A stretch of DNA of 64,000 bases from Perna viridis (lineage: Eukaryota): contig CM074518.1 of the NCBI GenBank assembly GCA_037379345.1, positions 4,650,001-4,714,000 on the forward strand, given 5' to 3'. The position numbers and the translations under genes are program-made. How positions within the stretch are numbered: the stretch's first letter is position 1; each line of letters starts with the position of its first letter. Below, piece after piece: positions 3,962-63,710 of this stretch. The notes beneath the pieces were generated by a model. It was not told the DNA's origin. It did no database searches and was given only the letters and a program-made list of their open reading frames with translations.

Positions 3962-4309
3962 GGCCGTGAAATGACGTCATTTCTGGGGAGATCTGATGAC
4001 ATCTATGATGGTCTTGGCTGTCTCATCCCTAATGTTGTTGAATAAATCTGTATTCGCCAACGACGTTAAACATTTAACCCTCTGGAACCAGTCTTTGCTA
4101 GATGTAACAGACTTCAACATATGGTACTGCCCAGACGTCATCCATGTCGGTGCTTTCCTCGTTCTAGTAGAACGTCTGACGTCTACGGGAGACGATGATG
4201 TGGTGAAGATTGCTCCGAAACATTGTCCTGAGTGTCATCATCAGTTTCCTCTGGTGTTGAAGGCCTTCTTGTGTTCTGATTCTCCGTAGTATGGGCGTCC
4301 CCATCAAAA

Positions 4310-9371: not shown

Positions 9372-10534
9372 ACTGTAAGCTGAACTAACTTACTTATACT
9401 TACTTATGATGACGTGTGTCCGATTACAACTTGTAACACTTACTTACATGTTTACATCAGTCAACTTACTTACTGTGTGTTTATAACAAACTACCCTGTA
9501 CTACTGTATAATCAATCAATCAATCACAGATAGACTTGGACGCAATGTAAAAAAAAGTTGCACACAATAGTGTCTCTGAGGTATCAAATATAAGGAGCTG
9601 GGCTAGCGAAACTTTTACGTTCGCAAAATAAAATTTAGACAATATCAACTTACGCTGTATCTAATCAAGTGTAGTCTTACTACGTATATGATCTGTCAAT
9701 GGTCAAAAGTCAATACTAGACTAAGTAAAATAGACCAAAGGTGAAAATCTGTACACCTAAAACATATCCCAACCTAAACTAACTACAACTACCTCAAGGA
9801 AAACTGCCTGAATGAAGAATAGTCAACTGAGCAGCTGAAAAGGTAGGCTACATGCAATAGGTGCGTGTAAAATAGACATACAGGTTCTGGTAGCTAGGAT
9901 TGGAAGTGCAATGTTAATAGATAAGCGTTAGGATTAACTGCAAATGTATAGTACCAAATATCGATCTCGCTCTACGTTGTCGATTGATATTAACGTTTAA
10001 TTACAAATTAACTTTAACTTTAAATTAAAAGTTTAAGTTTTGAAAACTAATCAAACTTTATCAAATTTTAAACTTAAAATTCAAATTCTAAATTAAGTTT
10101 GAATTAAATTAACTAATTTATCTATTATCAAAAACAAAATAACTTCTCCAATTTACTCTCCTCAAATTTACATAAGTATTTCACTAAAATCTCAAAATCT
10201 AAGCTTATAAGCAAATAAGCAAAGGCGTACCAGGAATAAGTAATGCTAAGCGTACAAAGCAAACAAAAGCAATGATTTATATAAATAATTTGCTAACACA
10301 TAAAGCAAACACAATACAAAAGTTTTACAAAATATGCATAAATAACTTACTATAAAATGTTGCTATAGCACAAATCTCCTATGCCGAATATCCATAAGCC
10401 ATGGCGAAAACAAAAACACAGCTGTGATGACTCCGCAATCTAGTCTTTAAAGTGCACTAATGTCAATATCGTATATCATCGTAGTGTACATAGATCCACA
10501 AATCCAATTTCATCAGAATTTCGTCCAAAAAAAT

Positions 10535-10548
10535 CTACGTGGGCGCCA
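10535..10548 (-). promoter_or_regulatory. Primer binding site, tRNA-Lys-like
   Basis: TGGCGCCCACGTAG one base after the 5' LTR end (...TTCCACA); resembles the Lys PBS TGGCGCCCAACGTG. Confidence 0.75.
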
Positions 10549-10549
10549 T

Positions 10550-10706
10550 TGTGGAAGCGCTTAAAATCTTGGGGCTTCGATATTAAGTCGTTTCAGGTTC
10601 AATACTTTATTTTGAACAAAACAATCTGTATGAAACAGGAAAAATGCCCTGTAATAAAAATACAAATATTATAGCACAAATTACAATTTTACATTTTACG
10701 CTTTAA
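10550..10706 (-). repeat. Truncated 5' LTR (~157 bp remain)
   Basis: Matches 3547-3691 except for small indels and a few substitutions; then switches abruptly to inverted-duplication sequence. Confidence 0.85.
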
Positions 10707-11533
10707 GCGTGGCTAAGCCAAAATGTTAAGGGTATGCACAAATATAAGGTAAGGTAGCATGAACTGTACATTTGAAATGTGAAAAGGTTTCGGTGTGGCA
10801 TTGGATATTTAAAAACAGAATGCTGTTTACTTTATGACACACAGGGAACAATTATATCAGTGGGACAGATATGATAAAGATGTACATAAATCACCAGTCC
10901 ATGGACAGTTATGATATAGGTGTAGTCAGTCATCAGTTCAACATGTACATTATATGATCATTGGACTGAACTGTTACAGAGGACAGTTATACAAACGGAA
11001 CATTTATGATATAGGTGTAAACCAGTCATCAGTACAACATGTACATTATATGATTGTTGGACTGAATTGTTACAGAGGACAGTTATACAAACGGAACAGT
11101 TATGATATAGGTGTAGACCTGTCATCAGTACAACATGTACATTATATGATCGTTGGACTGAACTCTTGCAGGGGACAGCTATACAAACGGGACAGTTATG
11201 ATGTAGGTGTAGACCTGTCATCAGTACAACATGTACATTATATGATCGTTGGACTGAACTCTTGCAGGGGACAGCTATACAAACGGGACAGTTATGATAT
11301 AGGTGTAGACCAGTCATCAGTTCAACATGTACATTATATGATTGTTAGACTGAACTATTACAGAGGACAGTTATACAAACGGGACAGTAATGATATAGGT
11401 GTAGTCAGTCATCAGTTCAACATGTACATTATATGATCATTGGACTGAACTGTTACAGAGGACAGTTATACGAACGGGACAGTAATGATATAGGTGTAGA
11501 CCAGTCGTCAGTCCAACATGTACATTATATGAT
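10707..11533. repeat. Left arm (part 2) of the inverted duplication, containing a 96-bp minisatellite (~6.5 copies, ~10903-11533)
   Basis: The unit translates as a 32-aa repeat in the ORF track; an inverted, diverged copy lies at ~17672-18230. Confidence 0.9.
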
Positions 11534-11659
11534 TCTTCCGTCGATCTTTTATATTATCAACCATTTTCGTAATATGTTCAGTAATAATGCTCAATCTTAA
11601 CGAAATCAATAATTGAGCAAATACATACGACCTGCCGATTTTATTATTATTCCAATTTG

Positions 11660-12541
11660 TAGATAATTATCTTCTATTTTCATAAGATACCTTAGATATT
11701 GTGTTTGTAGGATACCTCATACAATTTTGCTAATAAGATATCATAAACTCGAAGTATAACAGATATTCCATAAAGCACATAAGATATTAGATAAAGAGTA
11801 ATCAAGGGAACCAAGACTATAGCGGTAATCAAAAGAGTGTAGTCCAGGGACAAAGACCAGACATGGAAAACAGACATACACAACAAATAACATAAAGTAA
11901 CTAAAATCATACATACAAAGTAACAAAAGTAAATGAGCAACTCGGACTCCACTAAAAACTGGGAGCATGGATCAGGTGCACCGGTAGGGTAAGCGTCCTC
12001 TGCTTTTCTAGAAACACCCGCCGAGTTGCTCATAAAAAGATTATAAAATATCTTTCAAAGTATATAAGATATCTCATAAACATAATTTTATAAATTATTT
12101 CATAAAGTCTATGAAATAGCTTATACACTTTACTAGATAACTTATTAACTTAATAACATATCTTATAAACTTCATTCTTAACTTCTAATCTTTATCTGAT
12201 ATCTTATAAAACAATAAGATATATTATATACTTTAAGATAGCTTACAAACCGTTTATTATATAAGATATCTTATAAAAATGGGAGATATCCACAAAATTG
12301 TTTGAAATATCTACAAATTGCAATTTCAATTTGTAGATATCTCATATAATTTAGTAAATATCTTCTATTTTTTGTAAGATATCTTATAAATTTTATGAGA
12401 TGTCTCATAAACTTTACTAGATATCTTATACACTTTATGAGATATCTTATTCTATAAGATATCATAAAGGAAATAGGACATATCTACTTAATTATATAAG
12501 AAATCTACAAATTGGAATTGATATGAATACGGCGTGACATA
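11660..12541. mobile_element. MITE-like element built of ~14-bp AAGATATCTTATAA-type repeats
   Basis: Inverted ends tccaatttgtagata / tctacaaattggaattgatatgaatacgg; many internal agatatct repeats; interrupted by a PLE 3' fragment. Confidence 0.55.
11795..12034 (-). mobile_element. 3' end fragment of a Penelope-like element
   Basis: Near identical to 63520-63710, which directly follows a PLE RT C-terminus; further copies at ~18280-18490 (+) and ~33430-33510 (-). Confidence 0.75.
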
Positions 12542-12910
12542 AATACAGACAAACCAGTCTCAATACGGGATTGCAGGCCCAATTATGAAAAACCGTTTCA
12601 ACACCTGATACCTTTTGATTTCATTCAAAAGCTACAGTTTTATGATACAGCTATCCATTACGCTGTATTATTGCTGGTCTGACCAAGAGTCGATCATGTA
12701 TCTAAATCAGTTCCAGATATTTCACATAGGTACATTATTTGGGCATCATCCTTTTGCGCCCATTGGCGAAAACATGTAGTTCGATTGTGCAAAATTATAT
12801 TCCCGAAGTTGAATTGCGTGAAAAAAGATTACCAATTGCGATAGTTTGCCCGTAAAAAATCTTTAAAGCTAGTGATGCCAAATATTTCACAAAATATATG
12901 AAAATAGAAT

Positions 12911-13870
12911 ATATCAAATATCAAATATTTCATTGTCGTGTAAACATATTAATGTTTGTGCAAACAAAGGCCAACAACAAAATTAATCACAAATCATACA
13001 ATAATGACAAATGCAAATATGAGACTATTTAAAGTAGAATATGAACAATGTTATGCTTCTTCTACCCTCAGTTCTAATGACCGTTTCAAAAAGGAGCGGA
13101 TAAATTTTACATGTTCCTTAGAGGAGGGATTAAGTAGTTTAGATACAGTCATGTCTTCAAATTTCCAATTTAAATCTTTCTGAAGTTGATGTCTTAAGTT
13201 TTCATACAAATTACAGTGTATAAGGAAGTGTTCTTCAGTTTCAATAACATTGTAATGCTTACATCGTCGGTTTTACCTAGGAATGTTAAAATATCACCTC
13301 CCTTGATCTACTTCAAGATTGTGTTTGCTTTATCGTAATTTTGTAAAACATTTTCTTATGTAGAAGGCATGACTTAATTTTATATTTATACAGTGAAAGT
13401 TTGCTATTTTCATCATAGCTTTTTAATTTATTTTCCATAAGTAATCTATGTTTGTTTTCTACAGATCTTTTTATATGGATCTTTACAAGATTGACATCTT
13501 TAAAGTTTTTACAGTTTTCCATTTCTTGCAAGCTGTTATCTTCCTTAAATATGTTTTGTTATATATGTATACCAGGAATAAGTTCCCGAACTGTCTAGGG
13601 ATTTTGTCAATATGAAGACTTCTTTCAGGAGAGGATTAATTTTTTCAGTGTGGAGTCTTGCCAAATATACAAGAGACTGAGACAAAATAAAATGTTCCCA
13701 TAGGTAGACAACCTAGTTCGGCTCTTGCCGCAATATTTGATGCAGACTTTTTATGCCTAATATAAATTTACAAAAATTCAAATTATTTTTTCAAATGGGG
13801 TTTTATCAATAAATGAAAATAAGTCGACGGGATTTCCATTCTTTTTTCCTCTATTGATGGTCCAATGTAG
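12911..13870 (-). mobile_element. Decayed 3' fragment of an RTE-X-like LINE
   Basis: Remnants KTPFEK, SNIAARAELG and RCKHYNVIETEEHFLIHC; short (ATTTGAT)n-type tail near 12911. Confidence 0.65.
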
Positions 13871-16409
13871 GGCTACGTACCCATCCATAATATAAGTTAA
13901 GAATATAATTATCAAAAATGCATAAAAGATGTAATTCACAGTGTTGCAGTGGTGAGATCAGCCAAATGGCTGATAAATTTCTTTAGTTTAGCTGTTCTTG
14001 ACCCTGAAAATGTCAGTTATAGTTTGTTTTTTTTTTTTATAGATGACGCTACGTAACCGTGCAGTTGAGTAGTTTTCAGATTACGTCTCGACAACATACA
14101 TTGACGATTATAAATGCTATGTTTCCTCCGTCAATTTGGGCAGAGGTTCCTTCAACTAATCGCCAAACAAACAATAGACTAAGGTCTTTCATGCTCATTT
14201 TAACGAGCAATATCAATAATATTAAGATAGTTGTATTTTTTTCTGTATAAACTGGCGCATAGGGGTTATTGTCGCAAATGAGACGTTGCGCAAAAGGAGA
14301 TTCCCCCATTACTATAGTGTTTAGTTTAGCTCGGCACTTGAACTAATTGAAAGTAAAATTATATGTTTATTTTAGATGCTAACAAGTGTACTAGGTCAGA
14401 GTTTTATTCGATTGTTTTAGTGTCCTTTCGTCCAGTGTAATATTGGATTTGGCTTAGGTGTTCATACAAGCAGGTCATAAAATGATGTCACTGGTCCATT
14501 TTTTTTTGTTTTACTTTCTGTTATGAACTTCCACTTTTACATGATGCGCACTGCTTTGTATTTTTAGACAAGTTCAACTGTAGTTACATGTGATTTCCTG
14601 ACAAGTTATGTTTAAAAGCATCCCGTTGCGTTTCCTTTCTCTGGATGTGTGTCACTTTATAAGAGAATTGTTAATTTTTCTAAAAGTATCGACTGAAAGA
14701 AGTAGTAAAAAGAGGAAAGTTATGGAAAAGACAACATCAGGAACATGAAACAGAAAACAGACAGCATAGAAAGAACAAATTGTTCAACACAATAGAACCA
14801 AAGTAAATAATCAGCGCAAACCCTTCTAAAAGCTATCATTTTCCCTGTTTTTTTTTTTTGTATAGAGTATAGATTAATTTCAAGGAGTGAAATGTAGGTT
14901 CCCTCAACTAGGAACATAAACATGTGTTAGTAGTGGGTCGATGCAATAGTTCAGAGTATAATAATAGGTATCTATACTCTTGCAAAGAATTCATTTTAAT
15001 TAAAAATTTGTCACGCAGTAAACAGACGTGTCTGACCCCGAATTATATCAGATTTCATTTATAATTGTCAAAATTGGCAGTAGTACAAATTTCAAAATAC
15101 AAGTAACTAAAACACCGATCCTTCATTCTTTGTATTGCTCATGGTAGAAGCTCTCCATGGTGAATTTGGCTTCCAATGCTTTGAGTACTATTAGTATACA
15201 CTATTTTTTTTTAGATCTTCCCACATATTTGATTCTAATGCTGCTTATAAGATATTACTCCTTGAAACACATGTGCAGCTTATCCACAATTTCTATTGAC
15301 TTATGGCTTTCTTTTTTCTTGTTTTTCCCTTGTGACACACTTTCTATTAGTGGTGTTAAATGATGAAAACATGTTTTACCGCTGATTTTCAAAATCCTTG
15401 GATGTTTGAAAAGTTTAGGTGTGGATACAATTTAATTTGTGACGGACGGCCCGACGGACTGACAACTGATTATCGTGGTTTTCCCGCCAACAGTCAACAT
15501 AGTTGAAGCTACTGCTTCTTTTTTATAAGTTTTTGACTACTTCATCTAAATTTACAAAAATAAATATGCAACTGTTAAATCAGAGGGTAATTTTGTTAGT
15601 TATTTTAGAAACCAAATACACGTAGTATTATAAATTTTGAAATTTAAAGTAACACAAAACGAGTTTGGGGTAACAACAAAAATGTCGGCTCAAGAAATGG
15701 ACTTCAAAATGTTCTTTTATTGAAATTAATATAACGAGAATAGGTATGATGTATATGTCTAATAGATAACAACACCACCGAGATGAAAATGTCACCTCAA
15801 TTTTAGGACACTGCTTTAAAAATGAAAAGTTCTCTGATCCTTGAACTAATTATGCCCAAATACGTTACTCCGTAGGGATTCTTCCGTGAATTCACTTACA
15901 ACGGTGGACATGTAATTGCTATTAATGCACCCTTAAATATAAGCATTGCTGTTATGCCATACCGGCTAGACAAATTAAACTCGTATAGTACATAATAAAT
16001 TGGCCATTCCAACACTGAGCTTTGTTAACCACTATAAGTCATTTTGAAAAGTTAACAAATACGAATATCTAATCTAAATAACATTTTGTATAAATTATGC
16101 GAGATTGTTTCTCCTTTTTTGTCTTTAGCAGTATGCTCCCACAATCCAATTATTCGCATCTTAACATTGACATTGTCTACTTCATTTTTTCCAACATAAT
16201 TATATTACAATTATATTACAAGTTACTGTATTAGTGTGGTGTTAAATGTGATTCTTCAATATCAATGTTGTTATACCGTTATACTTATGGCACTGCTCAC
16301 TTTAAAAAAATGGTTTTACCTATGCAATGAACTGTGAATAAAAAATGTTTTCCTATCCGCTTAAAGAAGTTCGGTTTTTTTTTTGGTAAAATGAACTTGT
16401 GATCAGTAG

Positions 16410-17671: not shown

Positions 17672-19603
17672 TAAATTTGTATAACTGTCCTCTGAAGCAG
17701 ATCAGTCCAACGATCATATAATGTACATGTTGGGCTGACCACTGGTCTACACCTTTATCATAACTGTCCCGTTTGTATAACTGTCCTCTGTAACAGATCA
17801 GTCCAACAATCATATAATGTACATGTTGGACTGACGACTAGTTTACACCTTCATCAGAACTGTCCCGTTTGTATAACTGCCCTATGTAACAGTTCAGTCC
17901 AACGATCATATATTGTACAGTTTGGACTGGTGGTTGGTCCACACCTATATCATATATGTTCCATTGAAATAATGGTCTTTGTGACAGATCAGTCCAATGA
18001 TCATGTAATGTACCTTTTGGACTAGTGATTTGTCTACACCTATACTATATCTGTCCCACTGATATTATTGTTCTTTGTGTGTCCTAAAGTAGAAAAAAGC
18101 AGCATTATGTTTTGAAATATCTAATCCCACACAGAAGCCTTTTCACATTCAAAATGTTCAAAAATTCATTTCGTGCTACCCAACTTCCACTATTGTTTGT
18201 ATACCCTCAACATTTTGGCTTGGACACTATTTTAGTGCAAACTAACTTGTTGAATGTAAAATGTTTTCGAAAATAAAATGGCAGGTGTTTCTAGTAAAGT
18301 AGAGGATGCTTACCCTACCGATGCACCTAGCCTATGCTTCCAGTTTTTGGTGGAGTCTGAGTTGACTATTTGCTTAAAATGTAATGTGTTATTTCATGTT
18401 CTTTGTATTGTGTGTCTGTTCCCATGTTAAAGTCTTTATCCCTGGATTATATTCGTCTGATTTCTGCTCAAATTTTGGTTCCCTTGACTACCTTGGCCCT
18501 CTTACTCACTTGAGTACCTAGTTTTTTTTTGGTGGTAGCAGAAAACAAAAATGTTAATTGTTTTTGTGCCTTAAATAAGCTTTGAAAAAAAAATTTCAGT
18601 CCAACAAATTAAAACCAAAAAAAGCAAGTTCTATTTATTGAAAACAACAAATAAAAAGTATCAATCCATCCTCTGAAGAACAAAGCATGTGAGTATGCTG
18701 GTGTGTCTCTAAAATAATGCAAAAAAAATCCTCAATCTCATTTTTAAAAACTAATTCTTCTTGTCTTGGTATGCATGTAATTTAGTTAGCATAATGTTAG
18801 GTCTGTAGTAATGTTTCTGTACTGCACATAACCAGAGAGTCAAACTTTAACCCCTGTTATTGTCCATCTGTCAATTTCCTGTTGCATTTTCTAATTTGGC
18901 GGGTTTGAAGTGTGTTATAATACAAAATTCCTCAGCCTAAAATTCTCAGTATATGTCTGCTGATGGAACAAAATTTAAAATAAAAAAATAGAGAAAAAAT
19001 TATCTTAGAAAGCAAACATAAAAAATACTATGAATATAAAAATGAGCTCCATGCACATTTTAAATTACAAATTTACTCATAATTATCAATTAATACAGTT
19101 CAACATTCCTAAAATCATGGAAAGGAAATCAAAATGTACATTAGGGATTCATGTCTCTAACCTCTACATAACATTAACCTTAGGGTACAAATATCTACTG
19201 ATATATTGATAGAATTCAGGTGTAGTCTCAAGTTGTCATCATATTTATTCCATATTTTATACATCAGAGATCTTTTATATTATATAAGATATCTTAAATA
19301 ATATAAGAGACTTTGTTAATAAATTAATATATATGAGACATAAATTATATAAGAAATCTCACATAATTTGTGAACGATGTACAGCAAGCCGTTTTCATAT
19401 TAATTCCATATTTTAGAATATTTAATTATACTAAATAAGATATCTCATATATAAGAGATATCTTATATAGTATATGAAATTTAAGTTTCACATGTAAAAG
19501 ATATGTGATTTATTATACTGAATGAGGTATCTAAAATATGGAATAAATATGAAAGTTGCTTATCATATTTTACACCCCAACCTGAAATCGTGGATCAACC
19601 CAG
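17672..19603. repeat. Right arm of the long inverted duplication
   Basis: Reverse complement of 10707-11533 (including the 96-bp units), then of 2555-3546; carries an extra PLE 3' fragment at ~18280-18490. Confidence 0.85.
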
Positions 19604-21175: not shown

Positions 21176-24100
21176 CTACAAAAGTTTTGCAACTTTTGCG
21201 ATGAAGATAGAAAAGTTAGTCAATACATTTGTGTTACAATACATTATCATTCGATACAATTTATTAATATTCGGATTGGCTGTATAGTAACCTGGAATAT
21301 ACTTATTTCTAAGTTCGGTTACAAGATCATGATTGCACAAAGCAAGATAATGAAACTCATCCCCCAGACCTGTTCGACATAAAGTGCAGACCCGTTCATG
21401 TTGTGGTGTTCCGTACCATCTTCCTGTTTCCATAGGAAATTTTATATTGCATGTTCGAAGTTTACATATAAGTGTTCTGTGATATTTTTTGAGTCTCAGT
21501 AAGTATGGCTCGAGACGAAACTCAATTTTAAACTTCGAATAAAAATTTCCTCTGGACGAAGCATCAATATCAGAATACCATTTCTGTATGAACTGGTCTT
21601 GTAAGACCTGTTTCACAAGAAGTTTAAGAAAATTGATATTAACATTCCCTTGTATATTCCAAATTTCACTACATCCAATATCATCAAAACTTGATTTTAT
21701 GTAACATATCCATTTGAAAGATCGATCACCGTTTTCATACATATTGAACATAAGATTATACAATTTACCAGATAATTTATCTGTGTTATTTACAAGTTTA
21801 AACCAGAAACATATCATTTTAAGCTTGATGCTGATTTCAATAGGGTATCGTCCTAACTCTCCATACACCAAAAAATTTGGAGTAGATGAACGGAAATTTA
21901 GGATTTTCTTGCAAAATTGAAGTTGAATTTTTTCTATATTTGACTTATTTTCAAAGCCCCATATTTCTGAAGAATAGGTTAAAATAGGGGCTACTAATGA
22001 GTCAAGTAATTTCAATTGCAAATCTATGGGAATACTTATGTTATTTACCTTGTAATAAAAAGCATAAAGAGTTTTTTGTGCCTGCTCTACGAGTTTGTTT
22101 CTGGACTTATAAAAATTACCATTATAATTGAATATAAGACCCAGATATGTATACGAATCACATATTTCTATATTCTGCTCAAAAATATTAAAATGTACCC
22201 TTCTAGTAGATTTCCGCTTAGAAAAAATTATAATTTTTGTTTTTGAAACGTTCACAGTCAGCTTCCAAGTTGCACAATATTGTTCAAATACATCTAAAGC
22301 AGTTTATAATTCCTCAGGTGTATCCGCAAAAATTACAGTGTCATCTGCATATAGAAGTATAAACAATTTAATATAAAATCCTATATTTTCTAAACTTTTT
22401 GTATCTAGATATTGTAAACTTGAAATAGAGTTTTCGGTAAAAAACTCTTCCAGATCGTTTAGATACAAGGCAAACAGAAATGGAGAGAGTTTTTCCCCTT
22501 GACGAACCCCTATTTCACATGGGAAATATTCTGTTTTAAGTTCTCCCATTTTAACACATGATTTAATATTAGTGTACATGTTCAAAATAACATTAAACAC
22601 TTTCCCACTAATATTATTTTTTAATAATTTTTGAAATAATCCAACTCTCCAAACTGTGTCAAAAGCTTTCCTGAAATCAATGAAAGCACAGTACAATTTT
22701 TTACCTGATAAAAGATATAGAGAAATGAGGGAGTGAAGAATAAATATATTGTCCTGTGCACTATAACCTTTCCTGAAACCACCTTGAGAGTCAGATATAA
22801 GTCGAAACTCATCAGACATCTTATTGAGTCTAATGTTTATCACAGAGGTAAACACTTTACCCAAGTTGGATGTAAGACAAATTGCTCTATAATTATCTAA
22901 ATCATCCCGATCACCTTTGTTTTTGTATATGGGTTTAATAATTCCAGACAACCAAGTATCAGGTATCAAGCCCGTATCCAAAACAATATTGAACAATTTT
23001 ACATATATTGGCAACATATTGGCAATAGAACTTTTTATAAATTCATTGACAATTTCATCGTCACCTGACGCTTTACCATTTTTTTAAGATTTAATTGCCA
23101 ACTTGATTTCATCTTCAGTAATAGGACAATCCAAAATGGCAATCACATCTTCATCAACATTAAAACTATCAGCATCAGGATCAAACTCTGTATCATCGTC
23201 ATTTCATTTAACGATTTAAAGTATTCGTACAATTGCTCAGTAGTGATTTTATTATGAGCATTTGTTCCTCCTTTTCTTACTCGATTCAAAATTTTCCAAA
23301 GTTTTTTTGAATCTTTCTTGGAGGTTAGACGTAAATCTTGTTCGAATCTGTGCTGATAGTTTTTGTAACTCGTATTCATTTGCGATTTGTACTGTTTACT
23401 CGCATTTTTAAGAGCCTTCCGGTTTTCTCTATTCTTAATAAAACTATACCGAATCCGTGCCTTATGAAATTTTGCACGTGATTCGGCACACTTTTTATCG
23501 AACCAAACTTTATGATTTTCTTTTTCGGTACTACGGCGCTTTGGTTTGCCAAATGAAGACAATGCCGATTTTTTAAACAAAGCAGCAATTTGACGGACAA
23601 CTTCGTTTAAACTATCAACAAACACTTCACCTTGACCCTGTGACCGAATTTCTTCCATTTTTGTTTGTAACTCAGTTAGACATGTGACGTCATTATTAAT
23701 CGATTCAATAAAGCGGTTCTCCTTATAACTCACCCATCTAGGGACATGCGTAGGTGGAGGCGTGGGATTTATAGTAACTGTGCGCACTGAAGCATTGAGA
23801 CAAAACGTAATACAATTATGTACGTCAGAAAATAACGGATCAAAGTCATTCACATTAAAAGAACTAAACAATTCAAAACAATGCGAAGACAATAATACAT
23901 AGTCAATTAATGAAACATTTTTACAAGTTTTAATACCGACTTGGTAGTCATTTCCTGGTAATCTACCATTACCTATATACAAATTATTTCTTTTACAAAA
24001 CTCAATCAATTTATACCCAAAATTATTTGGAGCTGACTGATCTGTAGAATACCTTTGTAAAGGAATATTTATTTTGTATTAACACCTGATAATCATATAC

Positions 24101-24698
24101 ATAAGACAATAGGTCATCATCATCTACAATTTCATCTAATATTTCAAAGAGAGAGTCTTCTGGTATAACCACATCATTCAGAAGCTTAGTTTTAGCAATC
24201 ACCAACAAGACAGACATTACAATCTGTTTTACTGTTTAACACCAACATTTCATTTTCTATATCTGTAAATGCTTCATTAGAAGCATACTTAGTATTTTCA
24301 GGAGGTATATAAATTCCACCCAATAATAAATTTTTGTCAGTACTCGAAATTTCTGATTGGATTTCCACCCACTGAACAAAATCACAATTTGTAATATGAA
24401 ATTTTAAAAAATCTTTTAGCCCTTCTCGATAAACAATTACAATTCCACCTGATTTCTTTACAAATTTCGACCTATATTTTGAAAAACATAAATAACCTTT
24501 TGGCAAATTGCCTTCAATATCATCATAACTATCAGTTTTTGTTTCTACAAAAATTAAAATGTCATTTGTCTTTATTAAATTACAAAATTCTGGACACAAC
24601 AATTTGGACTTGAGCCCACAGACATTTAAACACGATACGTGTATGTTTTTTAACACATCACTACCAACGTTGACAGTTCGACTCCTGTTAGCGAGTTC
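21176..24698 (-). pseudogene. LINE ORF2: APE endonuclease, reverse transcriptase and C-terminal Cys/His domain, several frameshifts
   Basis: LNVCGL, ETK, SGG, YIPP, GD, SLIDY and SDVH endonuclease motifs; NYRAI, FIDFRKAFD, GVRQG and LYADD RT motifs; GELGRYP; ETGRW..CTLC..DEFHYL..C. Confidence 0.95.
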
Positions 24699-25918
24699 CT
24701 AGCTGCCCCCAGCGGGAGGGGGGATGCAAAAGTCACCACGTTGGTTTCCGGGCTGACCAAAGAATTGCGGAGGTGGTTCCCTGGACACTTGAGTTGGAGG
24801 AGGTATAGTAGGTTGTCTACTAGTAGATGGACGTTGATTGTCCATAGGAAATGCCTGTTCATTAAGGGGGTTGTTGACTAACTGGTTCCCAACGTACAGT
24901 TTATCCAATACTAGTCGTACATTACGATTACCCTGCTGCTTAAGCTCAATCATTTTCGGGATAAGTTCTTTTCTCCTGTTGCTTATTTCAGTGGGGTATT
25001 GTTGGAAAACTGCAACGCCCCTTCTCCCTTTGAGTTTATCAATGGCAGCTGACCTTACCCGTTCATGGTCACTATACTTAGCAAACTTGGCAATAATGTT
25101 CCTGGGCTTTCTGTCAACCCTTTGTCTAAGCCTATGAACATTACAGAATTCAATATTTTGAGCATTGTCAATACCAAGTTCAGTATGTATAAAGTTTTTA
25201 ACAACCTCTTCTGCATTTTCATTTTCAGGATCTCGGGACTCCTCAATGCCATTAAAAATGAGGTTATATTTCATTGAGTGAGCCTGCATTTCAAGAAGTT
25301 TTTCCTGTAGCATACCATTTTCAAACACAAGTTTATCTCTTTCAGTTTCTAAGCCAGATACCCTGTTTTCAACTAAATTATAATGGAATTCCTCATTAGT
25401 TAATCTATCTGATTGCTGTTTTAAATCATGCCTTATATCTTTTATTTCACAGTTTATTTTGGTAAAATGTGATTCCATAGCTGACACTCTGGCAATAATA
25501 AGTTCATCTAGCTTATCAAGTTTATTCAACCTTGTATTCATGAAGTTTATGGTTTCTAGAATTGTTTGTAGTGTGGAACTATCACATGTAGATATGGGTT
25601 GCTGATGAGTAGGTTGTTGAACTTGAAGAGAGTTATGTATAGGCAAATTTGGTACACTTGGGCCTGGCAGATGTTGAGTTCGTTGAACATGGGTGTAGTA
25701 GAAAAATTGCTTATAGGTGTGCTATGTTGCTGTTGTTGAATGGAGGGATGAAACATGGTTGGATTGGTACTTCTAACACCGTAAATAGACTCATTTGCAT
25801 TCGCAATGACTTGAGATAGCTCGGGTGAACTAATGTTTACATTCGGTATGGGCGCCGCCATATTGCTATCGGGTGGGGTCTGAGTACTTTTTGATTTCCT
25901 TTTTCTCTTACGTGCCAT
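24699..25918 (-). pseudogene. LINE ORF1: basic N-terminus, coiled coil and L1-type RRM; one frameshift near 25646
   Basis: MARKRKRKSKS start; heptad-rich region; NLIFNGIEE and HRLR..KPRNIIAKF typical of L1-like ORF1p. Confidence 0.85.
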
Positions 25919-26420
25919 AGAATAAATCCACAAAAATGTCTCATTTGATATTCATATTGATAACAAAAGCACATGATGTTATAAGATAATAGATATCTAA
26001 CCAAAAAAGTATGATATATAAAACATATTGACGGAGCTCTAACTCGTCCGTCCACTCACTTCGCCTCCATTTCTCCATTTTTCTGAACGGGGAATAACCA
26101 TGCCAAATCAGCCGTGACGTTAAATATCGAACATTTGAAAACTTCATCCAAGCGATATAGTTTTATTTGTTAAATTTTCGATCAATAGTGTACGTGATGT
26201 ATAAATATCGGTATGCTGTAGACCTATTTCAGAGAGTACCGTTTCATCAGCATCAAAAAATGCAGTTAAGAGTGTTGATTCTATTTGAATTCATATTCTT
26301 TGAATTAAAGTATATACAACATACTAGTATATTAAAACATATGGTTTTCATATGCTATAGGCCTAAAGGTATATTGGGATAACAGTCGTCATATAAACCT
26401 TTCTATCCTAATTTCACTGA

Positions 26421-36489: not shown

Positions 36490-37730
36490 GTAGGTAATAT
36501 GTCTGTAGATCAAAGAAAATTAAAAAGAGATTGAAAGGACTCTTTCGGGTAGGTTTTCTCCTGCAAATTAAACTGAACTTTATCAAAGGCAGTTGTTTGA
36601 ACGACGTCAACAAAGCAGCGGAAAGCCTTCCTGAGCTAGGCCAGAACATTAAGCGTTCATAGGAACAGTTCATTTACGGACCTAAAGGTGTTGACATTAG
36701 ATTTCGAGTGAAACAAGCTAGACCATATGACTTAAAAGACCCGATACGACATGCAGTCGAATTAGAAGCTTTCATTAAATCCTAACTCAAGATAGAAGAA
36801 AAAGTGGGTTTCTTAAGAACTACTGCATATGAAAGTGACTCTTACAGACAGGCGATAAGACTTAGAGATTAAGAATATGCAAAACAGCTCTGAATGATTT
36901 GCAGCAAGAAGTTAAAACTATAAAACTTAATAAGAATGGGTCTGAACATGGACAACTATCTTAACCACCTAACTGTTCTTGCAAAATCTCTCCATTTAGA
37001 TATGGTACTTCTGGTCACGTCGTTACGGGAGATTTAACCATCATCGAAAACGAATCTCTACATTATATCCTTTCTAAAGGTCCCAACTACCGTGAACCAC
37101 GCTCCATAAATTAGATTTATAACTTTAAAGTTATTATAGATGCCGTGGAGGACTATGCATGAAAATGGATAAAACGAGACCAAGAAGACATTGAGTCTCT
37201 GTCAGAGTGGTTAAAGGCCGTGAGGTCTTTATTTTTTAAACGAATGAGAGTTTTAAGTAGGTCAATGAGTGCCAGGGCTACATCTGTTTTCAAAGCTCCC
37301 GATTTAGCGAAAACATTGTCTACTATACATGACAAATATATATAAATAAATAGGACTGGGACAGCGGGATGCTTTAAATGTGGGAAATGTGATCATTGTA
37401 AAAAAGATTGTCATGACAGTAGAGTGAAAAAAAGTCCACTGAAAGTTCAGGAAACCACATCTGAAAAACAGAATGGTTCAATTGGGGTAAACGAACTGAT
37501 CATGAGACTGAGACTGTTATGTTAAATACCAAAGTCAATGATACACAAGTGAAAATGTTGGTTGACACAATGACAACGGTAACCCTCATTTCAAAGAAAC
37601 TGTTTAATCTTATGCATCCGCATGTAATGACACAAATGGACAGAAAGACTGCCAATGGATCTCTTTTGACGTTGTTTGGGAAAACCATCATTGACATTGA
37701 CATAAATGGCTCGAACATAACATAACTGTA
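36490..37730 (+). mobile_element. Decayed Gypsy gag-protease fragment
   Basis: RFSPAN.TELY, AVELEAF, zinc knuckle CFKCGKCDHCKKDC (~37370) and MLVDTMTTVTLIS. Confidence 0.65.
36960..37340 (+). mobile_element. Penelope-like element internal fragment nested in the Gypsy gag
   Basis: PPNCSC..GHVVTGDL..SKGPNYREP..LSEWLKAV, typical of the region upstream of PLE RT. Confidence 0.7.
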
Positions 37731-40825: not shown

Positions 40826-43587
40826 ACTATGATCATGTAATAGCAGTTTATGGGAAATAAACAGAAGCGGAACTTACCATAAGAGGTCCTAGCTACATGC
40901 ATGTCTAGACTAGAGTGCCTTGTTGTTCGAGATTCCAGAGTGTTACTTATTTAAGGGCTTGTGTGTTGAAGAATCAACAATGAAGAACTATGTTAGATTG
41001 AGATAGATGAAACCATTGTTTAAAAGTATGTGTAACATGTGTGTTGAAATGAGAATTTGTTTTTATTGGGAGGTACAATTTATTTTTGTTGGGAGGTACA
41101 ATTTATTGGGAGGTACAATTTATTAGGCACAATACTTCTAGTAGCTGTAAATATTAACCAATAATAAACCAAGTTAGCCACGAATACTTGTTGATTACAT
41201 GAATATATCGGGTGTTTTCATGTATTAAGTCAATGTATTTACACAACCTACATAAAATAAGGATAATGTGGTTTTATAGGAGTTACATTGATAGTATAAG
41301 TTAAAAATGTTGTGAAGGCAACAGTTTTTTTTTTAAATAATATGTTTTTCAACATGGCCCAACACCAAACCTCGGACTCTTGCAAATAATGCTCGTATTT
41401 GGCATTGAAAATGGATTACCATTTGAAACATAAAGACTATAGGCTGTTTTTAATAGTTTTACTTCTATCAATAAACATGGGGCGTGAAATGAAAATCTGT
41501 CAGCTTTTCCATTGGACAACTTGAAATAAGAAATTTCGCTATCTGAGAAAGTTGTCCAAGCTTTCTCATTTTTATTGGTTATCAATATTAACTTATTTTT
41601 TTTAGTCAACTTCAAAAATCATGTTTTCAAATGAATTTGATAAATTTTACATACCTATTATGCATTTAATATTTTACTTTTATTTTACTACGGTAAGCGG
41701 GTATAAAAAAATTCCCGGAAAATTTACGACACCAATTTTAAGAGTTGACTGTATTTGGGTCACTGCTAATGCGTTCAAAGGATTTTGGGGTCACGAAATT
41801 ACTTTCAATTGCTGTTTGGCTGATAATACCATTGATCTGACGTAGAAATTAACATTAAATACCTATCATTTATCCCTTCTCGTCATTAGTTACAAATCTG
41901 ACCGAGTTCCTAGAACCAGACATGCAGACAGGTGTTGACAGCTGAACTGACATTGTAGAAAAGCTTTGCATTGGTCTTGATGAATGGTTAAAAGCCGTTA
42001 ATTGGTCGAAAGATCGGTGAGGGTAGCAAACACTTGAACAGTTTTCTTCAAAATTCGCTTTCCAATTAATTTTAACCGAAAAATAAGATACGTTTGTCTT
42101 TTGTTACTTCTTTGACAAACCTTTCTTATTTTTCCTAAAGCTAAAGAGACGGCATTCGATAGTTTTTTTTTCTCCAAATACGCCACTTTTTGCGGTCCCG
42201 CCATTCTGTCGTCACAAAAATCAATAGAAAATTATGTCCACTAGCAAAAAAAAAAGCTTTCAATGTACTTTAATACCCTTGCAGAGTAAAGCGGTAGGTA
42301 AGCAAGTAGAGGAGCGCAATTTGTTCCCATTGAAATGCCGACCGTTTATTGAAAAACGAGTCCAGCACACTGGACATATATGTACTTAAACAAAAATGTA
42401 TCTTAACATTTATATGTCAGAGTGCATAGATAGTGCCATAACTATAGTATTCAAATAGTGACACTTGCCCTGATGTAAACAAAAGAAGATCAGGACATTA
42501 TGCCATATATATCAGGTTGACAGTGGACACCCTCGTTCAGGTGCTATTTAAGCACTGAATATCTATTAACATTTGGATTTATAATTTCAAAGGCTTACCT
42601 GGTAATCATTTTGAATTTAAAAGAGCAGTTAGTTAGTAATCGTCAAAAAAAACAAAAACAAAAACAAACAAACAAACACATAAATGAAATAATAATTATC
42701 ACTAAAAAATGTATATGGAATAACTGCATTCATCTAAAAAACGATACGATTATTAAAATAAAAGCGATTGACATTGACATCTGCTATTATTGAACTACAT
42801 TTTATAATTGATGAAAAAGGGAAGTTTTCATCTTAAATCTTTGACAAATTTGACAAATTTGATTTTCCCTTTGGGTTTTTCGACGCAGTCGGTATAGTTT
42901 CACTTTTTACCCTTTGACCTTAAAGACGCTCTTCCATGGAACCGCAATTCACCTGATCGCAATTCTATTTTCCGATTGGCCCAATACTGATAACTTAGTG
43001 GCGTTCGAAAAAAAAACTGCATCGAAAATTTAAATGGCATGCAATGTGTTATTTCCTGTGTTAAATGTAGGAATTATAAGTGAAGAGAACACATTTTATT
43101 GCGTCGGCTATCTTTTTTTTCTTCCTATTGTAGTAAAATTCCATAGGCTCCTTGCTTGGAGTTTGACCTCCAAACTAATGGACCAGTGATCGATCTATAA
43201 CTGACATAAATGCCTGTTCTATTCATAGGACCTAACGTTCCAGGGCAAAAAGGTTTACCCTCTGCTTTGTGAAATAGATTTTTTCGACTGTTCCATTATT
43301 TTTTTTACTGTTTTCGTGTGCTGTAATTTCATGTGGTCTAAGGTTTACCGCTGTCGACACTTCTGTTACTGTTATTTTCTTCTAATAATGTATTTTTTTC
43401 AATAACAAGGGTTCTTACGGTTTCTAAGAAGTAGTAAAAGGAATAATCAGGTAACTTTTTTATAATTCCTTTTTTAAATAACTTTATTATATAACAATAC
43501 GAATTAAAATTTAAAGACAAATCATACTATTGTTTATGCGCATTGTATGGCGCAAACTTTTATATCGTCGTCAATTTGTGACGTCGC

Positions 43588-45329: not shown

Positions 45330-47358
45330 ATTTTCACGACACATAATTTTGTAGCTGAATTATTCAAGAGTTTACAATTGAAAAAATGAAACTAAATACT
45401 TATATCCGAAGTAAAAGTTAGCGAACAATAGATGGCCGATAGGAGTTTTTGAAAAAGTAAATAATGTCTGTCGAAAAATAAACAGACTTAATTCTAACCC
45501 TGTTTGTCCCCGTTGACTTCAATGTTAATAATCAAAGTGCTGAAGCACAGAGTCAAGGAAGACCTCAAATTTATCCAAAAAAAAATATTCATGTAACAAA
45601 ATTGTAAGCTAAATACACCGATCAAAAACTTACTCATTTTAAAGAAATAATCATTTGTTTTAATGCAATGCATATTATACTACTTGTTTATCAATGTATT
45701 TTTGGATCTTCTTTTGTACTGTTACTTTTGGTATTCCTGGCTGTGTGCCTGTATGTTCTCAAATCATGACACTTTACACTTAAATCAGCATTTCTTAAAA
45801 AATATGAAATCCACTGGGAATCACTGACTATCAATATTAGATGAATTTGCAAAGTAAGAATGGATCCAGACTTTGAAATTTCGGGTTGGAAATGCGTGCA
45901 GTAGAAATGAATCCCGCGGACTGGAGGAGGTTGAACAAGTGCCTAATCTAAAGGAAGGAGCAAAAAGCTTCTCCTTATGTGCGATCACTTTTACAGGGAA
46001 TTTGTTTGTAATAGAATAAATCAACAAATAAGTCTATATTTTTAATTTTCGAAAATAATTTACTAACACTTGTCCTTGTCATTATTGTCTAAATCAGGGC
46101 CTAGGTTGAACTTGTCGAAAATGTGCACGTTTTTACAATAAATGATTACCTTTATTGAGGAAATTTTCAATGCAAACGAGGATACAAACTCGTGTCGTAA
46201 AAAGTACTCATAGATTTGAGGGATTTAAGATTCCAATTGGAAAGTCAAGGATATAGAGATGTGGTTAATACAGGAAATATGATGGACTTTGAGTATAATT
46301 CCATCTTTTCTTCTCTCCAAAGCAAAAAGGTTACTAGTGAACCCATACCCCATGAGTATGATAAATCACTATTTCTCATAAGCTGAGTGTTTTATACTTG
46401 TCAGCCCTCAATAATTTATGTGCATTTCATTCATTTTTTCTGCATGTTTTTTTTTCACAAATATGTACACTTGTAAAGATAACAATGCAAGCATCTCTTA
46501 TGTTTTGCAAATTAATTTGCTAAGAAATCGGGATTCAGTTTTGTATATTTTTTTAGATGTTGACATATACACAAACAGGTGCTTCATGCTACTGATACAT
46601 GTACCAGCACTTGAGAGTTACGAACTTTGCTTCATGTTTAATAGTGTACCAGCACAAAAAAAGTTTTATTTTTGCTTTCTTCTCACTACATCTAGTGAAA
46701 CTTCTACGTGATGACAACTGAAAAGGAACCAAGGAAACCAATCATAACAGTCTTTGATAAATGCAATATATTACAAGTACAGAAGTACAGAAACCTCCTC
46801 CTGTTGGGAAATATTATTATATATACTGATAATTTCGTGCAAAATCAGGCACAGGTTTTTACTAGTTTGAAACCGCCCGGCCAATATTCCCACAGTGATC
46901 AATACTGGTCGATTTAGATTTCGGTCATTATTTATATTTTTTGTTCTACGTTCTACATTTAAAAATGTTAATATGATAAGTATCTACTATATTTCAGTGT
47001 TCTAAAGTTATATTCTTAAAATATCTATCATCTGTATTAATTAAGAAAAAAATAAATAAACATTCCTTCCTCGAAATAAGTAATAATTTTAATTGTTTTA
47101 ATTAATTCAAAGATAGTTCCTCATATGATACATAATGTATATCGATTATTGCCCGTAAATTCTCAATATAAACAAGGAACTCGGTACTCAAGCAAACCGA
47201 TTGTTTCAAATAATTTCAGTGTTGATATGAGGAAGATTTGTTTTTAAAACACATGATAAGGAAATAATAAAAAAAAAAAACACGTTGCACAGATGAACGA
47301 AGGTCATGATTATGAAAGGTAAGCAAGTATCAATGTAAAAGTTGTATTAACATTCTCA

Positions 47359-48330
47359 AGCGCCCTAGACCACTCGGCCAGCTATATAGCCTAGCTGGCC
47401 GAGTGGTCTAGGGCGCTGGACTTTGTGCAGGCGGTGTTGCCAAGTTCGAGTCCCGTGGAGGGAACGACCAAAAATTTGCATCGCAAATTTGACAGTTCTA
47501 ACATCGTTGGGAATTTTTCAGACCTTTCTATACGTTTACATATCTTCCCTGTATCAATTTGATCCGATGCAGTGGATGCAAATTTTTGGTCGTTCTCTCC
47601 GCGGGACTCGAACTCGCTGTGACATCTATGGCAACACCGCCTGCACTAAATCCAGCGCCCTAGACCACTCGACCAGCTAAGCTATATAAAAATATCGCTT
47701 TCGCTGGCCGGGTCATTCCTCCTCGTAGGATTAATCTAGGGCTGTAACTTAGTACACGATGTATGGTAGTACGGGACAGTTCATCTAGGTGTTATTATGT
47801 AGGATGGAGGATCAAATTAATGATGCATGTCACAACAAATCAATATTATACAACGTCTCAGAATGTGACGACTCTATTCGCTACACTGCTCCATCGGATC
47901 AAATTGATACAGGGAAGATAACGTAAACTTATAGAAGGGTCTGAAAAATTCCCAACGATGTTAGAACTGTCAGATTTGCGATGCAAATTTTTGGTCGTTC
48001 CCTCCGCGGGACTCGAACTCGTACCGCTGTGAAATCTATGGCAACACCGCCTGCACTAAATCCTATATTTTTATATAGCCTAGCTGGTCGAGTGGTCTAG
48101 GGCGCTGGATTTAGTGCAGGCGGTGTTGCCCTAGATGTCACAGCGGTACGAGTTCGAGTCCCGCGGAGGGAACGACCAAAAATTTGCATCGCAAATTTGA
48201 CAGTTCTAACATCGTTGGGAATTTTTCAGACCCTTCTATAAGTTTACGTTATCTTCCCTGTATCAATTTGATCCGATGGAGCAGTGTAGCGAATAGAGTC
48301 GTCACATTCTGAGACGTTGTATATATATAT
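47359..48330. mobile_element. Tandem and inverted array of a ~405-bp tRNA-Leu-derived unit (retrozyme / non-autonomous PLE-like)
   Basis: Segments: - (47359-47384), + (to 47573), - (47575-48063), + (48064-48330); period 405 bp (47575 to 47980); ends in (TA)n. Confidence 0.8.
48078..48172 (+). other. tRNA-Leu(TAG)-derived head with Pol III A and B boxes (not a functional tRNA)
   Basis: A box TGGTCGAGTGG at 48085-48095; GGCGCTGGATTTAG as in tRNA-Leu; B box GTTCGAGTCC at 48152-48161; anticodon and acceptor stems do not close. Confidence 0.75.
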
Positions 48331-48480
48331 GTAAGATTAATCGTCTAAATAAAATTCAACAATCACTCTTACGGGGTGATGGATCGTTAAAAAACGATGC
48401 GAAACATAACAATAAATTAAATATACGTCTAAATATGTTTAACATCACCAGAAGATGGTAAAATTTACATTGAATATGAG

Positions 48481-48528
48481 TTTTATGCTGATGAAGGATA
48501 TCAGTTATCTGAAATATTCAATGTAAAT
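48481..48528 (+). ncRNA. Candidate minimal hammerhead ribozyme remnant
   Basis: CTGATGA (48488-48494), stem II AG(G)ATA/TATCT, GAAA (48511-48514), palindromic AATATT then C; stem I is weak. Confidence 0.45.
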
Positions 48529-50249
48529 TTTAACATATTCTGGTATAAAAATTTGACACTTTTCAGTTCATCCAAATAGGACATCTTCTCTCCATTGTTT
48601 ACTTGCAAAACAAGAAGAAATCTGAACTTGACTTAATTGTTCGTTGCTTGGATGTTGGTGAATGGTAGTCATACAACGTCTCCTATTTTTATATTATAGT
48701 AAGTGACATTCGGAAAATACTCCAAGTTTTAGATTAATGTCTAGAAAGAATCAATGTACCCTCTAGCGATTGGTCAATGGTGACATCACCGTGCTCTTCA
48801 TTCAAACTCCTGCATCTAAATAGAAAACAAAATATTACCCCACAATCTTCATCTTTTTGTCAACGAAGACAAATTCCTAATTTGATCAAGAGACCATCAG
48901 TTAAAATGAAGATATCTAGAACACGTAGAATTATTAGAAGATAAAATATATGTACATGTACAACTACATATTAGCAAGCTGTTAATATTTTAGTACTACG
49001 TTTAAATTTATAAATAAATAGACCAATAGCCTACCGTACGGGACAGAAACGTTAACTGTTTGTAGCGCGTTTTTGTTTTTGTATTATTATCAAATAAACA
49101 TATACATTGTAACTTCGCCCCCTCTTAAAATGATTGAAATGTAAGTACCGGACAGACAACTACATCAAAGTAAAAGCAAGATCACATTTAGAACGAGAAA
49201 CAGGTTATTGTTCCATAACCTGTCCCTCGTTCTAATTGTGGTTACAAAAAATGCTGGAACGTACAAAAACTATACCAGACACCAAAAATAAGACGAAATT
49301 AATGTAATATAACGAGAGTGAATATGGAGCGACTACAACTCCCCCGTACGAAAAATGTCAGCTCAGTGCCATCCGTGGGTATTCAATAAACGACGATGAA
49401 ACCTCAACACCAAAAGGCAGGCTAGCCAAATAGACATACTGGTACAGCGAAAAGGTTGCCCTTATAGGCTCCAGCAACATAAAAGTAAACTGAAAATGAA
49501 AAGGAAACAAGACATACAGAGGCCAGAAATTTCTGACCTTGGAACAGGCGCAACGAAACATGTACTTCTGTGTCAATTACTTTAAGAAAAAAAATTCAAT
49601 TCGGAAGAATATTAATGAAAAAAATACAAAAAAAATGTAAAGATTAAAAAGATAAGTATAAGAAAGGTGTCATAGAGACTTCACTCAATGTACGAGTAAA
49701 AACTTTTTTATTTCGCGATTTTCACTATAAAATAATACTTATTCCGGTCTTAGAAAGGGTATATAAATATTGGCTCATGGAATATAAATCATAAGCTGTG
49801 AATGTGACATTATATACCCTGTCTAAGGCCGGAATAACATATAATATCCTTTACGAATGAGTCTTTTCAAGGTTTAGTCAACTTATTGGGTGAGCATTGA
49901 GCTTTCCGTGCTTTGTAAAGAATATTGCCAGGAAATAAAAGTTGAGAGATATCCACACGTGTTAATCGTACATCTGTTTTTGAAAATGAGTTCAGTTTAT
50001 GGGTCGAACAATTTTGTAGATTTTTTTTACGAGCTTGTGATATCGAACACCTTGATGTACATGTAGTAAATTTTCGTTTGTATAAGATTACTTTCGTGAA
50101 AATCCGAAACATAGTTACAAATTCGAGCAAATCGAATCTATTGTGATATGTAAACACTATATGATGGTGACAATGGGACATCAACATCCAACAGATAGTT
50201 ATGATTAATGATAGCGAAAGAAAAGTAATTTTAATACTAAGTTTACCAT

Positions 50250-50600
50250 TATTGATATGAATACTTAGACGAAGAAACGGACATGTTTAATTATCAGTAT
50301 TTGCTTTGTTCAAAGAAAATGCTGTTGAATATACATCTTTATTACTTATATTCAAGTCGTCGTTGTTAAGAGCCAAAACATCGTCCAAATATCTGAAGGC
50401 ATTATTAAACTTTTTCTACCAAATGTTATTTTGAAGGGTATTTTCCTATTCTTGCCAAACAATTCGATCCATAATTATATAGAAAGATCCACAATCACCA
50501 AGTGGTGCACAATTGGTCGCCATGGGAATTTCAATAACTTGACGATAAAAGGTATCGCCCAAGCGAACGAAAATGTTGTCTAACGAGAATTCGAGCCTGT
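50250..50600 (-). mobile_element. Decayed PLE reverse transcriptase core fragment
   Basis: LDNIFVRLGDTFYRQVIEIPMATNCAPL and FRYLDDVLALNN. Confidence 0.8.
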
Positions 50601-63084: not shown

Positions 63085-63710
63085 ACCCAAGGATTTGATA
63101 CATCGCATCTACCCAAAAGAACTTGAGATAAAGGATGCTACACACACTGTAGATCAGCCTCATATCTTGACCTACACTTATAAATCGATGGTAAAGGAGA
63201 ACTATTGACCAAACTTTACGACAAACGTGATGACTTTTCATTCAAAATTGTCAACTTTCCTTTCAACTGTGGCAACATGCCTTCAGCACCTGCATATGGA
63301 GTGTTCATATCACAACTCATACGTTATGCCAGAGCATGCCGAAACTACGCAGACTTTTTGTATCATGCTAGAACTCTAGCAAATAGGCTTATGATTGTGG
63401 TTATGATGCTACAAGATTGAAGTCATCACTTCAGAGGTTTTATGGTCGTCATCATGAACTCGTTGATCGTTATGGTGTATCTATCTGCACCATGAAAACT
63501 GATTTATTTAACGGGTCATACAGTGCACCTGGTCTATGCTCCCAGTTTTTAGTGGAGTCCGAGTTGCTCATTTGCTTTTGTTACTTTGTATGTATGATTT
63601 TAGTTACTTTATGTTCTTTGTTGTGTATGTCTGTTTTCCATGTCTGGTCTTTGTCCCTGGATTGCATTCTTTTGATTACCACTATAACCTTGGTTCCCTT
63701 GATTACTCTT
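63085..63710 (+). mobile_element. 3' fragment of a Penelope-like element (RT thumb with no downstream endonuclease, plus 3' UTR)
   Basis: YPKELEIKD..SYLDL, KLYDKRDDFSFKIVNFPF, YGVFISQLIRYARAC and FYGRHHELV; 3' UTR follows directly, consistent with N-terminal-endonuclease (Naiad-type) PLEs. Confidence 0.85.

Follow-up and report, generated by a model that had tools for sequence, protein, structure and literature searches.

What propagates a short non-coding repeat that carries a tRNA-like Pol III head, lies in permuted and inverted arms and ends in (TA)n, and is a ribozyme involved? This question is raised by positions 47356-48330 of the window, the whole 64,000-nucleotide stretch of Perna viridis DNA analysed here. 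A preliminary description had placed the element with the retrozymes, as a ribozyme-processed unit whose local hammerhead had decayed. We find that, in the way it works, it resembles a non-autonomous PLE, with the head of a SINE. The reading that we favour, with a probability of roughly 0.7, is that of a ribozyme-free, tRNA-Leu-headed, non-coding PLE passenger with a Penelope-type insertion structure. To our knowledge, the known partners of SINEs are LINEs, and the small PLE passengers known so far are either hammerhead retrozymes or derived from pLTRs. That picture would widen, if the reading is true, with a passenger that has a tRNA head, lacks a ribozyme and can be given a named candidate partner.

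Organization of the window copy

The repeat at 47359-48330 has a period of 410 nt, close to the ~405 bp first reported, and the three strand switches and perfect 26-bp hairpin reported with it are borne out. Unit positions (u) take the first base of the tRNA-like head as u1 and run to u410. The copy comprises four segments: 47356-47384 (minus strand, u32 to u4), 47383-47572 (plus, u405 to u204), 47575-48063 (minus, u30 through u410 to u113) and 48063-48330 (plus, u396 to u250). The first switch is a fold-back of the tRNA head at 47356-47417, where the minus-strand stretch is followed by the plus-strand head; its 26-bp hairpin, 47359-47384/47392-47417, is perfect as read from the sequence and also appears in the inverted-repeat list. 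Arm 1, the second segment, is 87% identical to the consensus with an internal deletion, and contains an A box at 47396-47406, the first start motif at 47518-47532 and its hairpin at 47550-47565, all on the plus strand. Arm 2, the third segment, holds 1.2 permuted units (u30 to u410, then u1 to u113) and crosses the unit junction. Arm 3 stands head-to-head with arm 2, has its A box at 48085-48095 and B box at 48150-48161 (plus), and runs into (TA)n (48320-48330) at the second of the two fixed 3' ends. The permuted tandem unit first described is therefore real, but as the direct tandem in the window amounts to only 1.2 units, the term tandem array was an overstatement. An ORF scan of the window found no open frame of at least 110 aa overlapping the region. 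A complete monomer is absent from this copy, which is probably a dead end.

The tRNA-Leu head and Pol III signals

As first described, the unit has a tRNA-Leu head, intact A and B boxes and a (TA)n end. Compared by eye, the head and the tRNA-Leu(TAG) of this genome agree from the D arm up to and including the anticodon, and once more at the B box; ARAGORN called no tRNA in the window. Judging from the position of the A box, the Pol III start is expected at ATATAGCC. The unit junction joins a T5 run, the predicted Pol III terminator, to this sequence, and is found at 47681-47694 (minus; T5 joined to ATATAGC, the predicted start), with a second copy at 48066-48079 (plus). A sister family, B, has a 465-nt unit with ~90% identity among copies; it has the head and junction in common with the family of the window copy (A), and its body is diverged. 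The junction is the sole run of at least four T in family B. Family A has a further internal T5 at u145, which, on the sequence, Pol III would have to read through.

Long tandem arrays of tRNA-Leu-like 5' halves were also observed, on contig C6 at 6.63-6.78 Mb (L296-L301) and on C7 at 14.45-14.55 Mb. The C6 array has mostly a 1087-bp period, with a full tRNA in just one repeat of L296.

Copy number, ends and insertion structure

A first look at the family in the 723-Mb host genome gave 1648 candidates. Stretches placed arbitrarily and totalling 590 kb contain six insertions, which corresponds to ~7,400 genome-wide (95% interval 2,700-16,000), making this a dispersed, non-coding family of high copy number, with ~7,000 insertions by sampling. 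At loci found without a unit query, 44 of 84 segments stop at one of two fixed 3' ends, u155-166 or u241-258, which together cover 30 of the 410 positions; at the same loci, the 5' ends are spread and have no fixed start. RNA reads and contigs have TA-rich loose ends at both fixed 3' ends (47930 and 47847 in the window). In the set of the next paragraph, many of whose loci came from unit queries, the tract (TA)3 adjoins 134 of 210 outer 3' ends versus 41 of 122 outer 5' ends.

Larger features were counted in 166 insertions, a set in which many loci had been picked by unit queries and from which listed duplicate loci were removed. The unit junction is crossed by 127 of them, and 57 contain a head-to-head inversion; the PLE-style mobilisation with inverted junctions first proposed is probably right. 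Candidate TSDs of at least 7 nt are at chance level (9 versus 7.1 in shuffled sequence). The alternative offered at the outset, dispersed monomers with TSDs as in an ordinary tRNA-SINE, does not describe such copies. In the whole set, a complete monomer is found in 11 segments. Tandems reach at most 3.5 units among the copies seen, and most copies are below 1.5. Haplotypes are shared between tandem units at 108 of 126 sites (74 expected) and between inverted arms at 86 of 102 (60 expected). Some 80% of copies pass the junction; of those reaching it, 8 of 40 have it as their 5' stop, 2.4 times background (p ~0.02). The pattern of ends, tandems and inversions fits that described for PLEs in the accessible text of PMC8557442. 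TRIMs with a small-RNA promoter (Helenus, Ajax and Cassandra, in part of PMC10886601) were considered and rejected: the two LTRs with fixed termini are not found here, where 5' ends vary, 3' ends lie in (TA)n and TSDs of at least 7 nt show no excess.

The family carries no hammerhead

The hammerhead-like letters at 47686-47740 (minus) are present as first noted, but they do not make a hammerhead. The heptamer CCTACGA, taken for a locally decayed CTGANGA core, is the normal state of the family (50 exact matches), and the restoration of CTGANGA that was looked for in the consensus failed: in a consensus built from 55 loci, CCTACGA persists and CTGANGA is on neither strand. Of 128 junction hits, a set with old copies and duplicates in it, not one has that core, and family B carries CTTACGA at the same position. 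The single local decay is T397>G, which gives GCGATA for the family's GCTATA. Stems I and II are absent and the U preceding the cleavage site is a C. With core and both stems lacking, the ribozyme processing once envisaged finds no support. CCAGC, which precedes GAAA, is complementary to the head, so that GAAA sits in an internal loop of the helix that pairs the two ends of the unit.

A hammerhead descriptor matched neither strand of family A or family B, also when one mismatch in the core was allowed, while detecting minimal hammerheads in six of six PLE 3' ends, controls that were picked after the motif was known. Rfam reported no ribozyme in the unit, a silence that is weak since it also missed the PLE hammerhead in L242; a genome-wide search with the Rfam Hammerhead_1 model gave no matches with the controls equally silent, and is thus uninformative. 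An HDV-like ribozyme on the antisense strand was also rejected. Both families have a P3/L3 look-alike there, but with no P1 partner within 250 nt and, in family B, also without the GG for P1.1. A side hairpin at 47714-47731 (minus; u360-378) has an ACGAGG loop and a stem that changes compensatorily between A and B; its opposite strand resembles an HDV-type P3/L3 without P1.

As far as sequence can tell, the element is not a retrozyme and its family has no hammerhead. That it is nonetheless a hammerhead retrozyme with a decayed local ribozyme, or the descendant of one, would account for its size and tandem habit, which fit retrozymes (PMC7229834, in part), and for the near miss of CCTACGA, one deletion from CTGACGA and followed by a GAAA-hairpin; Sm-alpha, in the available text of PMC6765202 and PMC2770079, is an existing case of a tRNA head with a hammerhead in tandem. 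Against it stand the missing core, lacking in the sister family too, the absent stems, the descriptor that worked on its controls and, as a weak point, Rfam. We consider it highly improbable. On this sequence evidence it is refuted for the family, leaving room only for a ribozyme of a class not yet known or for a distant ancestor.

Predicted pairing of the RNA ends and the variable junction

The predicted monomer is rod-like when folded, its two ends pairing with each other (z -3.9 and -5.7). In the window, the predicted terminal helix, in which the 3' end of the unit pairs with the tRNA head, spans 47640-47750 (minus; fold z -3.8). Chimeric arms of this helix fold 3-9 kcal/mol worse. Across 50 aligned junctions (26 from family A and 24 from B, taken from 76 and 24 available), 90.5% of cells in the inner 18 pairs are paired. 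The inner helix has one subfamily-wide compensatory change, G-C to A-U in 23 B copies, and a second such change separates A from B in the outer helix, which was checked pairwise as the alignment tool had shifted it. Folding models thus predict a long helix between the two ends, and the sister families differ in it by two compensatory changes; with two subfamilies only, this covariation amounts to two independent points.

The junction is hypervariable: it has length variants in 38 of 94 cases, as against 4 of 136 for the internal T5 and 25 of 146 for an A5 run. The palindrome at the junction could, on its own, be prone to slippage. Junctions are identical in 4 of 8 direct tandem neighbours, where 0.18 would be expected at random, and control sites in 8 of 15 and 11 of 17; in inverted-arm pairs the junctions differ in 4 of 4. 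Since the identity between tandem neighbours is at the control level, it does not tell a template jump from a ligated circle. The idea that the junction is re-made at every pass drew on a count of 3 identical among 12 neighbours that mixed tandem and inverted pairs, and was dropped because matched controls show no deficit.

By RNA-seq, the unit is transcribed on both strands, and 62-68% of reads run into the flanks. There is no discrete start or end, so that no free monomer is seen in these cDNA libraries, which are dominated by read-through and unsuited to circles.

Candidate partners and a shared start-site-plus-hairpin module

A search for GIY-YIG domains identified PLE-N, which encodes an RT followed by an endonuclease with a CX4CXXC linker, in an 897-codon open frame in L129; a second copy, L130, has RT and GIY-YIG domains. 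PLE-N has an ordinary pLTR. A tRNA unit serving as promoter of the autonomous PLE was suggested by L129 only, and was rejected as other full-length copies have the ordinary pLTR. PLE-C, found later, is mostly 45-70% identical to PLE-N in aligned pieces, and both carry their own hammerhead. PLE-C is a C-terminal-endonuclease PLE with 929 first-look candidates, 18 of 30 loci passing the hammerhead descriptor. An inverted pair of PLE-C 3' ends lies just outside the unit at 48320-48544 (both strands), tail-to-tail over a common TA tract, and includes a true minimal hammerhead core at 48488-48514 (plus), 160 bp to the right of the unit.

PLE-N adjoins the unit at 22 of 30 loci, or 19 of 27 when a duplicated composite is counted once. 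The composite of PLE-N and unit occurs with an identical flank at L155, L167, L168 and L175, on two contigs, and so probably travelled as part of a larger segment, either mobile or duplicated. Long TA tracts adjoin the unit in 5 of 13 cases versus 19 of 27 for PLE-N loci (p 0.09), and the co-location may reflect merely shared (TA)n targets.

Further information comes from a module at the 3' ends, consisting of a start motif, T.AGAC..TATA, and, 29-36 nt later, the pattern YGY-[ATY..GAT hairpin]-CC. Module 1 of arm 2 lies at 47896-47944 (minus), with the start motif at 47930-47944 (fixed 3' end u163) and the hairpin at 47896-47911; its plus-strand copy has them at 48226-48240 and 48259-48274. 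Module 2 lies at 47809-47860 (minus), with the start motif at 47847-47860 (fixed 3' end ~u246-250) and the hairpin at 47809-47827, and on the plus strand the start motif alone is left, at 48310-48323. In the neighbouring PLE-C, the module occupies 48426-48432 and 48381-48401 (minus). The module occurs at all seven testable sites, twice each in A, B and PLE-N and once in PLE-C, with hairpin stems of 4-8 bp that differ in sequence, so that four families give a covarying start-plus-hairpin signal. The hairpin pattern was derived from the hairpins of the first module, and three of the second module then turned up unprompted; as background, it matches 9 times outside these families in 1.18 Mb, and the few matches in six family-D and two Naiad loci were read as unit copies or as lying far from the PLE end. 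PLE-N and PLE-C each have two 3' ends in (TA)n, separated by 83-89 nt; in the unit the two are separated by 83 nt. Linear similarity is weak beside this strong structural signal. Aligned over the whole length, unit and PLE-N pLTR reach only z 1.7, which is not significant, with 239 of 2438 random windows scoring as well, and a family-D PLE end reaches z 2.4; an anchored block test, chosen post hoc, gives 2 of 2950 for unit against PLE-N. On insertion structure, module and co-location, PLE-N and PLE-C, as autonomous TA-targeting RT/GIY-YIG PLEs, are the likely partners that copy the unit.

Other PLEs were considered as partners and set aside. The PLE RT fragments noted earlier are indeed in the window, at 36965-37342, 42283-42396, 50099-50595 and 63092-63518, the last in a Naiad fragment running to 63700, but they belong to two Naiad-type families, A and B, that have no sequence in common with the unit; the 3' ends of Naiad family A, moreover, are mostly not in (TA)n. 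One Naiad family is extremely abundant, with 34,197 first-look candidates, and one is old, at ~25% divergence. Family-D PLEs are TA-targeting and sometimes adjacent to the unit, but have a different end motif. Family D comprises several further TA-targeting subfamilies (L100, L101, L102, L105, L109, L111, L113, L115, L118 and L121), most with minimal hammerheads; four adjoin the tRNA unit. On contig C6, 47136030-47151672 (part in L128) has four GIY-YIG hits, in 628-aa frames, ~5.1 kb apart, a probable tandem PLE array.

Proposed mechanism and its rivals

In the mechanism that we propose, Pol III would make a ~410-nt monomer that begins at ATATAGCC and ends in the T run. The hairpin would be bound by the PLE protein, which would nick (TA)n, and reverse transcription would begin ~20 nt upstream of the hairpin, at AGAC..TATA. 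At the RNA 5' end, the RT would jump to the adjacent 3' U-tail, held in place by the helix, and go round again; repeated rounds would yield permuted tandems, and the head-to-head arms would come either from both DNA strands being primed or from strand switches. Since the hairpin is downstream of the start site, it would be lost from the end of each copy, and a complete source copy would thus be rebuilt only by copying more than one round. In the accessible part of PMC11167929, an Anolis PLE initiates internally at two sites, with a binding region that extends downstream of them, extends both strands and can dispense with its hammerhead in vitro. End-to-end jumping by non-LTR RTs is mentioned in the text available from PMC12039810. 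A template jump at the RNA 5' end specifically is a tentative element of this scheme, to which we give a little under an even chance.

The same element and partner could instead operate through a monomer whose ends, held by the terminal helix, are joined by a host ligase into a covalent circle for rolling-circle reverse transcription. The frequent passage of the junction, the rod-like fold and the sharing of haplotypes between tandem units, and of junctions by half of the tandem neighbours, are consistent with a circle, and retrozyme circles are ligated by RtcB in vitro (part of PMC7229834). However, no ribozyme is there to leave a 5'-OH and a cyclic phosphate, and the 5'-triphosphate of a Pol III transcript would have to be processed before ligation. 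With the mild excess of 5' stops at the junction and with junctions that differ in the other half of tandem neighbours and in every inverted-arm pair, we regard the circle as unlikely. Tandems might also arise solely from read-through transcripts of tandem loci, through a leaky T5 or Pol II, with internal priming and no end-joining. Family A already has to read through a T5, most RNA reads are read-through, and PLEs are thought to use multi-copy mRNAs (PMC11167929, in part), yet the hypervariable junction and conserved end-pairing are left unexplained; if the hairpin is required, one module would be lost per generation, and copies nevertheless reach 3.5 units. This makes an origin in read-through alone distinctly unlikely.

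If the unit were an ordinary tRNA SINE dependent on LINEs, its tandems and palindromes having formed by recombination after insertion, the tRNA head and high copy number would be explained; bivalve SINEs are occasionally tandem or palindromic, ~3% in one species in the accessible text of PMC11481361. The permuted copies, internal 3' ends and spread 5' ends, the head-to-head arms in 57 of 166 insertions, the chance level of TSDs and a 3' module that matches PLEs largely refute this reading, which we consider very improbable. To return to the PLE passenger, it is possible, if somewhat doubtful, that such elements form a distinct class of Penelope-dependent SINEs, in which Pol III RNAs with paired ends let the PLE RT roll on a linear template without ribozyme or ligation, and expose the PLE cis signal of an AGAC..TATA start and a hairpin downstream of it. 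Their end-to-end jump could be a general origin of PLE pseudo-LTRs and partial tandems. Internal start-site choice and partial-tandem formation by PLEs are called open in the portions available of PMC8557442 and PMC11167929. A 410-nt RNA and a near-intact partner frame make both questions testable in vitro.

Comparison with known systems

The closest likeness is to non-autonomous PLEs such as MRC1, a Chlamys derivative. In the text available of PMC8557442, these are, like the unit, non-coding, with partial head-to-tail multicopy insertions, inverted 5'-truncated arms, microsatellite targeting and alternative 3' ends ('tail'), and a hammerhead is not needed in either. Unlike MRC1-type PLEs, the unit has a tRNA-derived Pol III head, a predicted terminator and predicted paired RNA ends, and it shares only the short motif-plus-hairpin module with an autonomous element; its likely partners are C-terminal-endonuclease PLEs with a Neptune/Nematis-type linker. 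Non-LTR retrozymes, as covered by parts of PMC7229834 and bioRxiv 10.64898/2026.07.22.740005, have in common with it a short tandem unit (150-450 bp), a self-paired RNA and a proposed mobilisation by PLEs, but the unit lacks the type I hammerhead, and its monomer would be defined by a predicted Pol III start and stop rather than by self-cleavage. The schistosome SINE-like elements Sm-alpha and Sj-alpha (PMC6765202 and PMC2770079, in part) are also tRNA-related Pol III elements in tandems whose single copies tend to lose what propagation needs; they carry an active hammerhead, which the unit does not.

Bivalve tRNA-derived SINEs, in the accessible text of PMC11481361, share the tRNA head, the A and B boxes and the thousands of dispersed copies; their partners are LINEs and Penelope is absent from that text, whereas copies of the unit are permuted, lack TSDs and have internal ends. 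DRT2 (part of PMC12039810), whose RT makes tandem DNA by repeated jumps on a non-coding RNA that is linear, offers an analogy only: it is a bacterial defence system with an unrelated RT and RNA, and the jump in the unit is one that we infer. A literature search found no PLE-mobilised tRNA SINE described; Repbase, Dfam, subscription journals and supplements were outside its scope, and the family may be catalogued.

Other repeats in the window

Two further retroelements were recognised by eye, both on the minus strand. At 4310-9389 lies a broken LTR retrotransposon with gag-, protease-, RT-, RNase H- and integrase-like frames, and at 21176-25951 a LINE-like element with ORF1-, endonuclease- and RT-like frames interrupted by stops. 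A 96-bp tandem repeat forms two arrays in opposite orientation, at 10903-11533 and 17676-18057.
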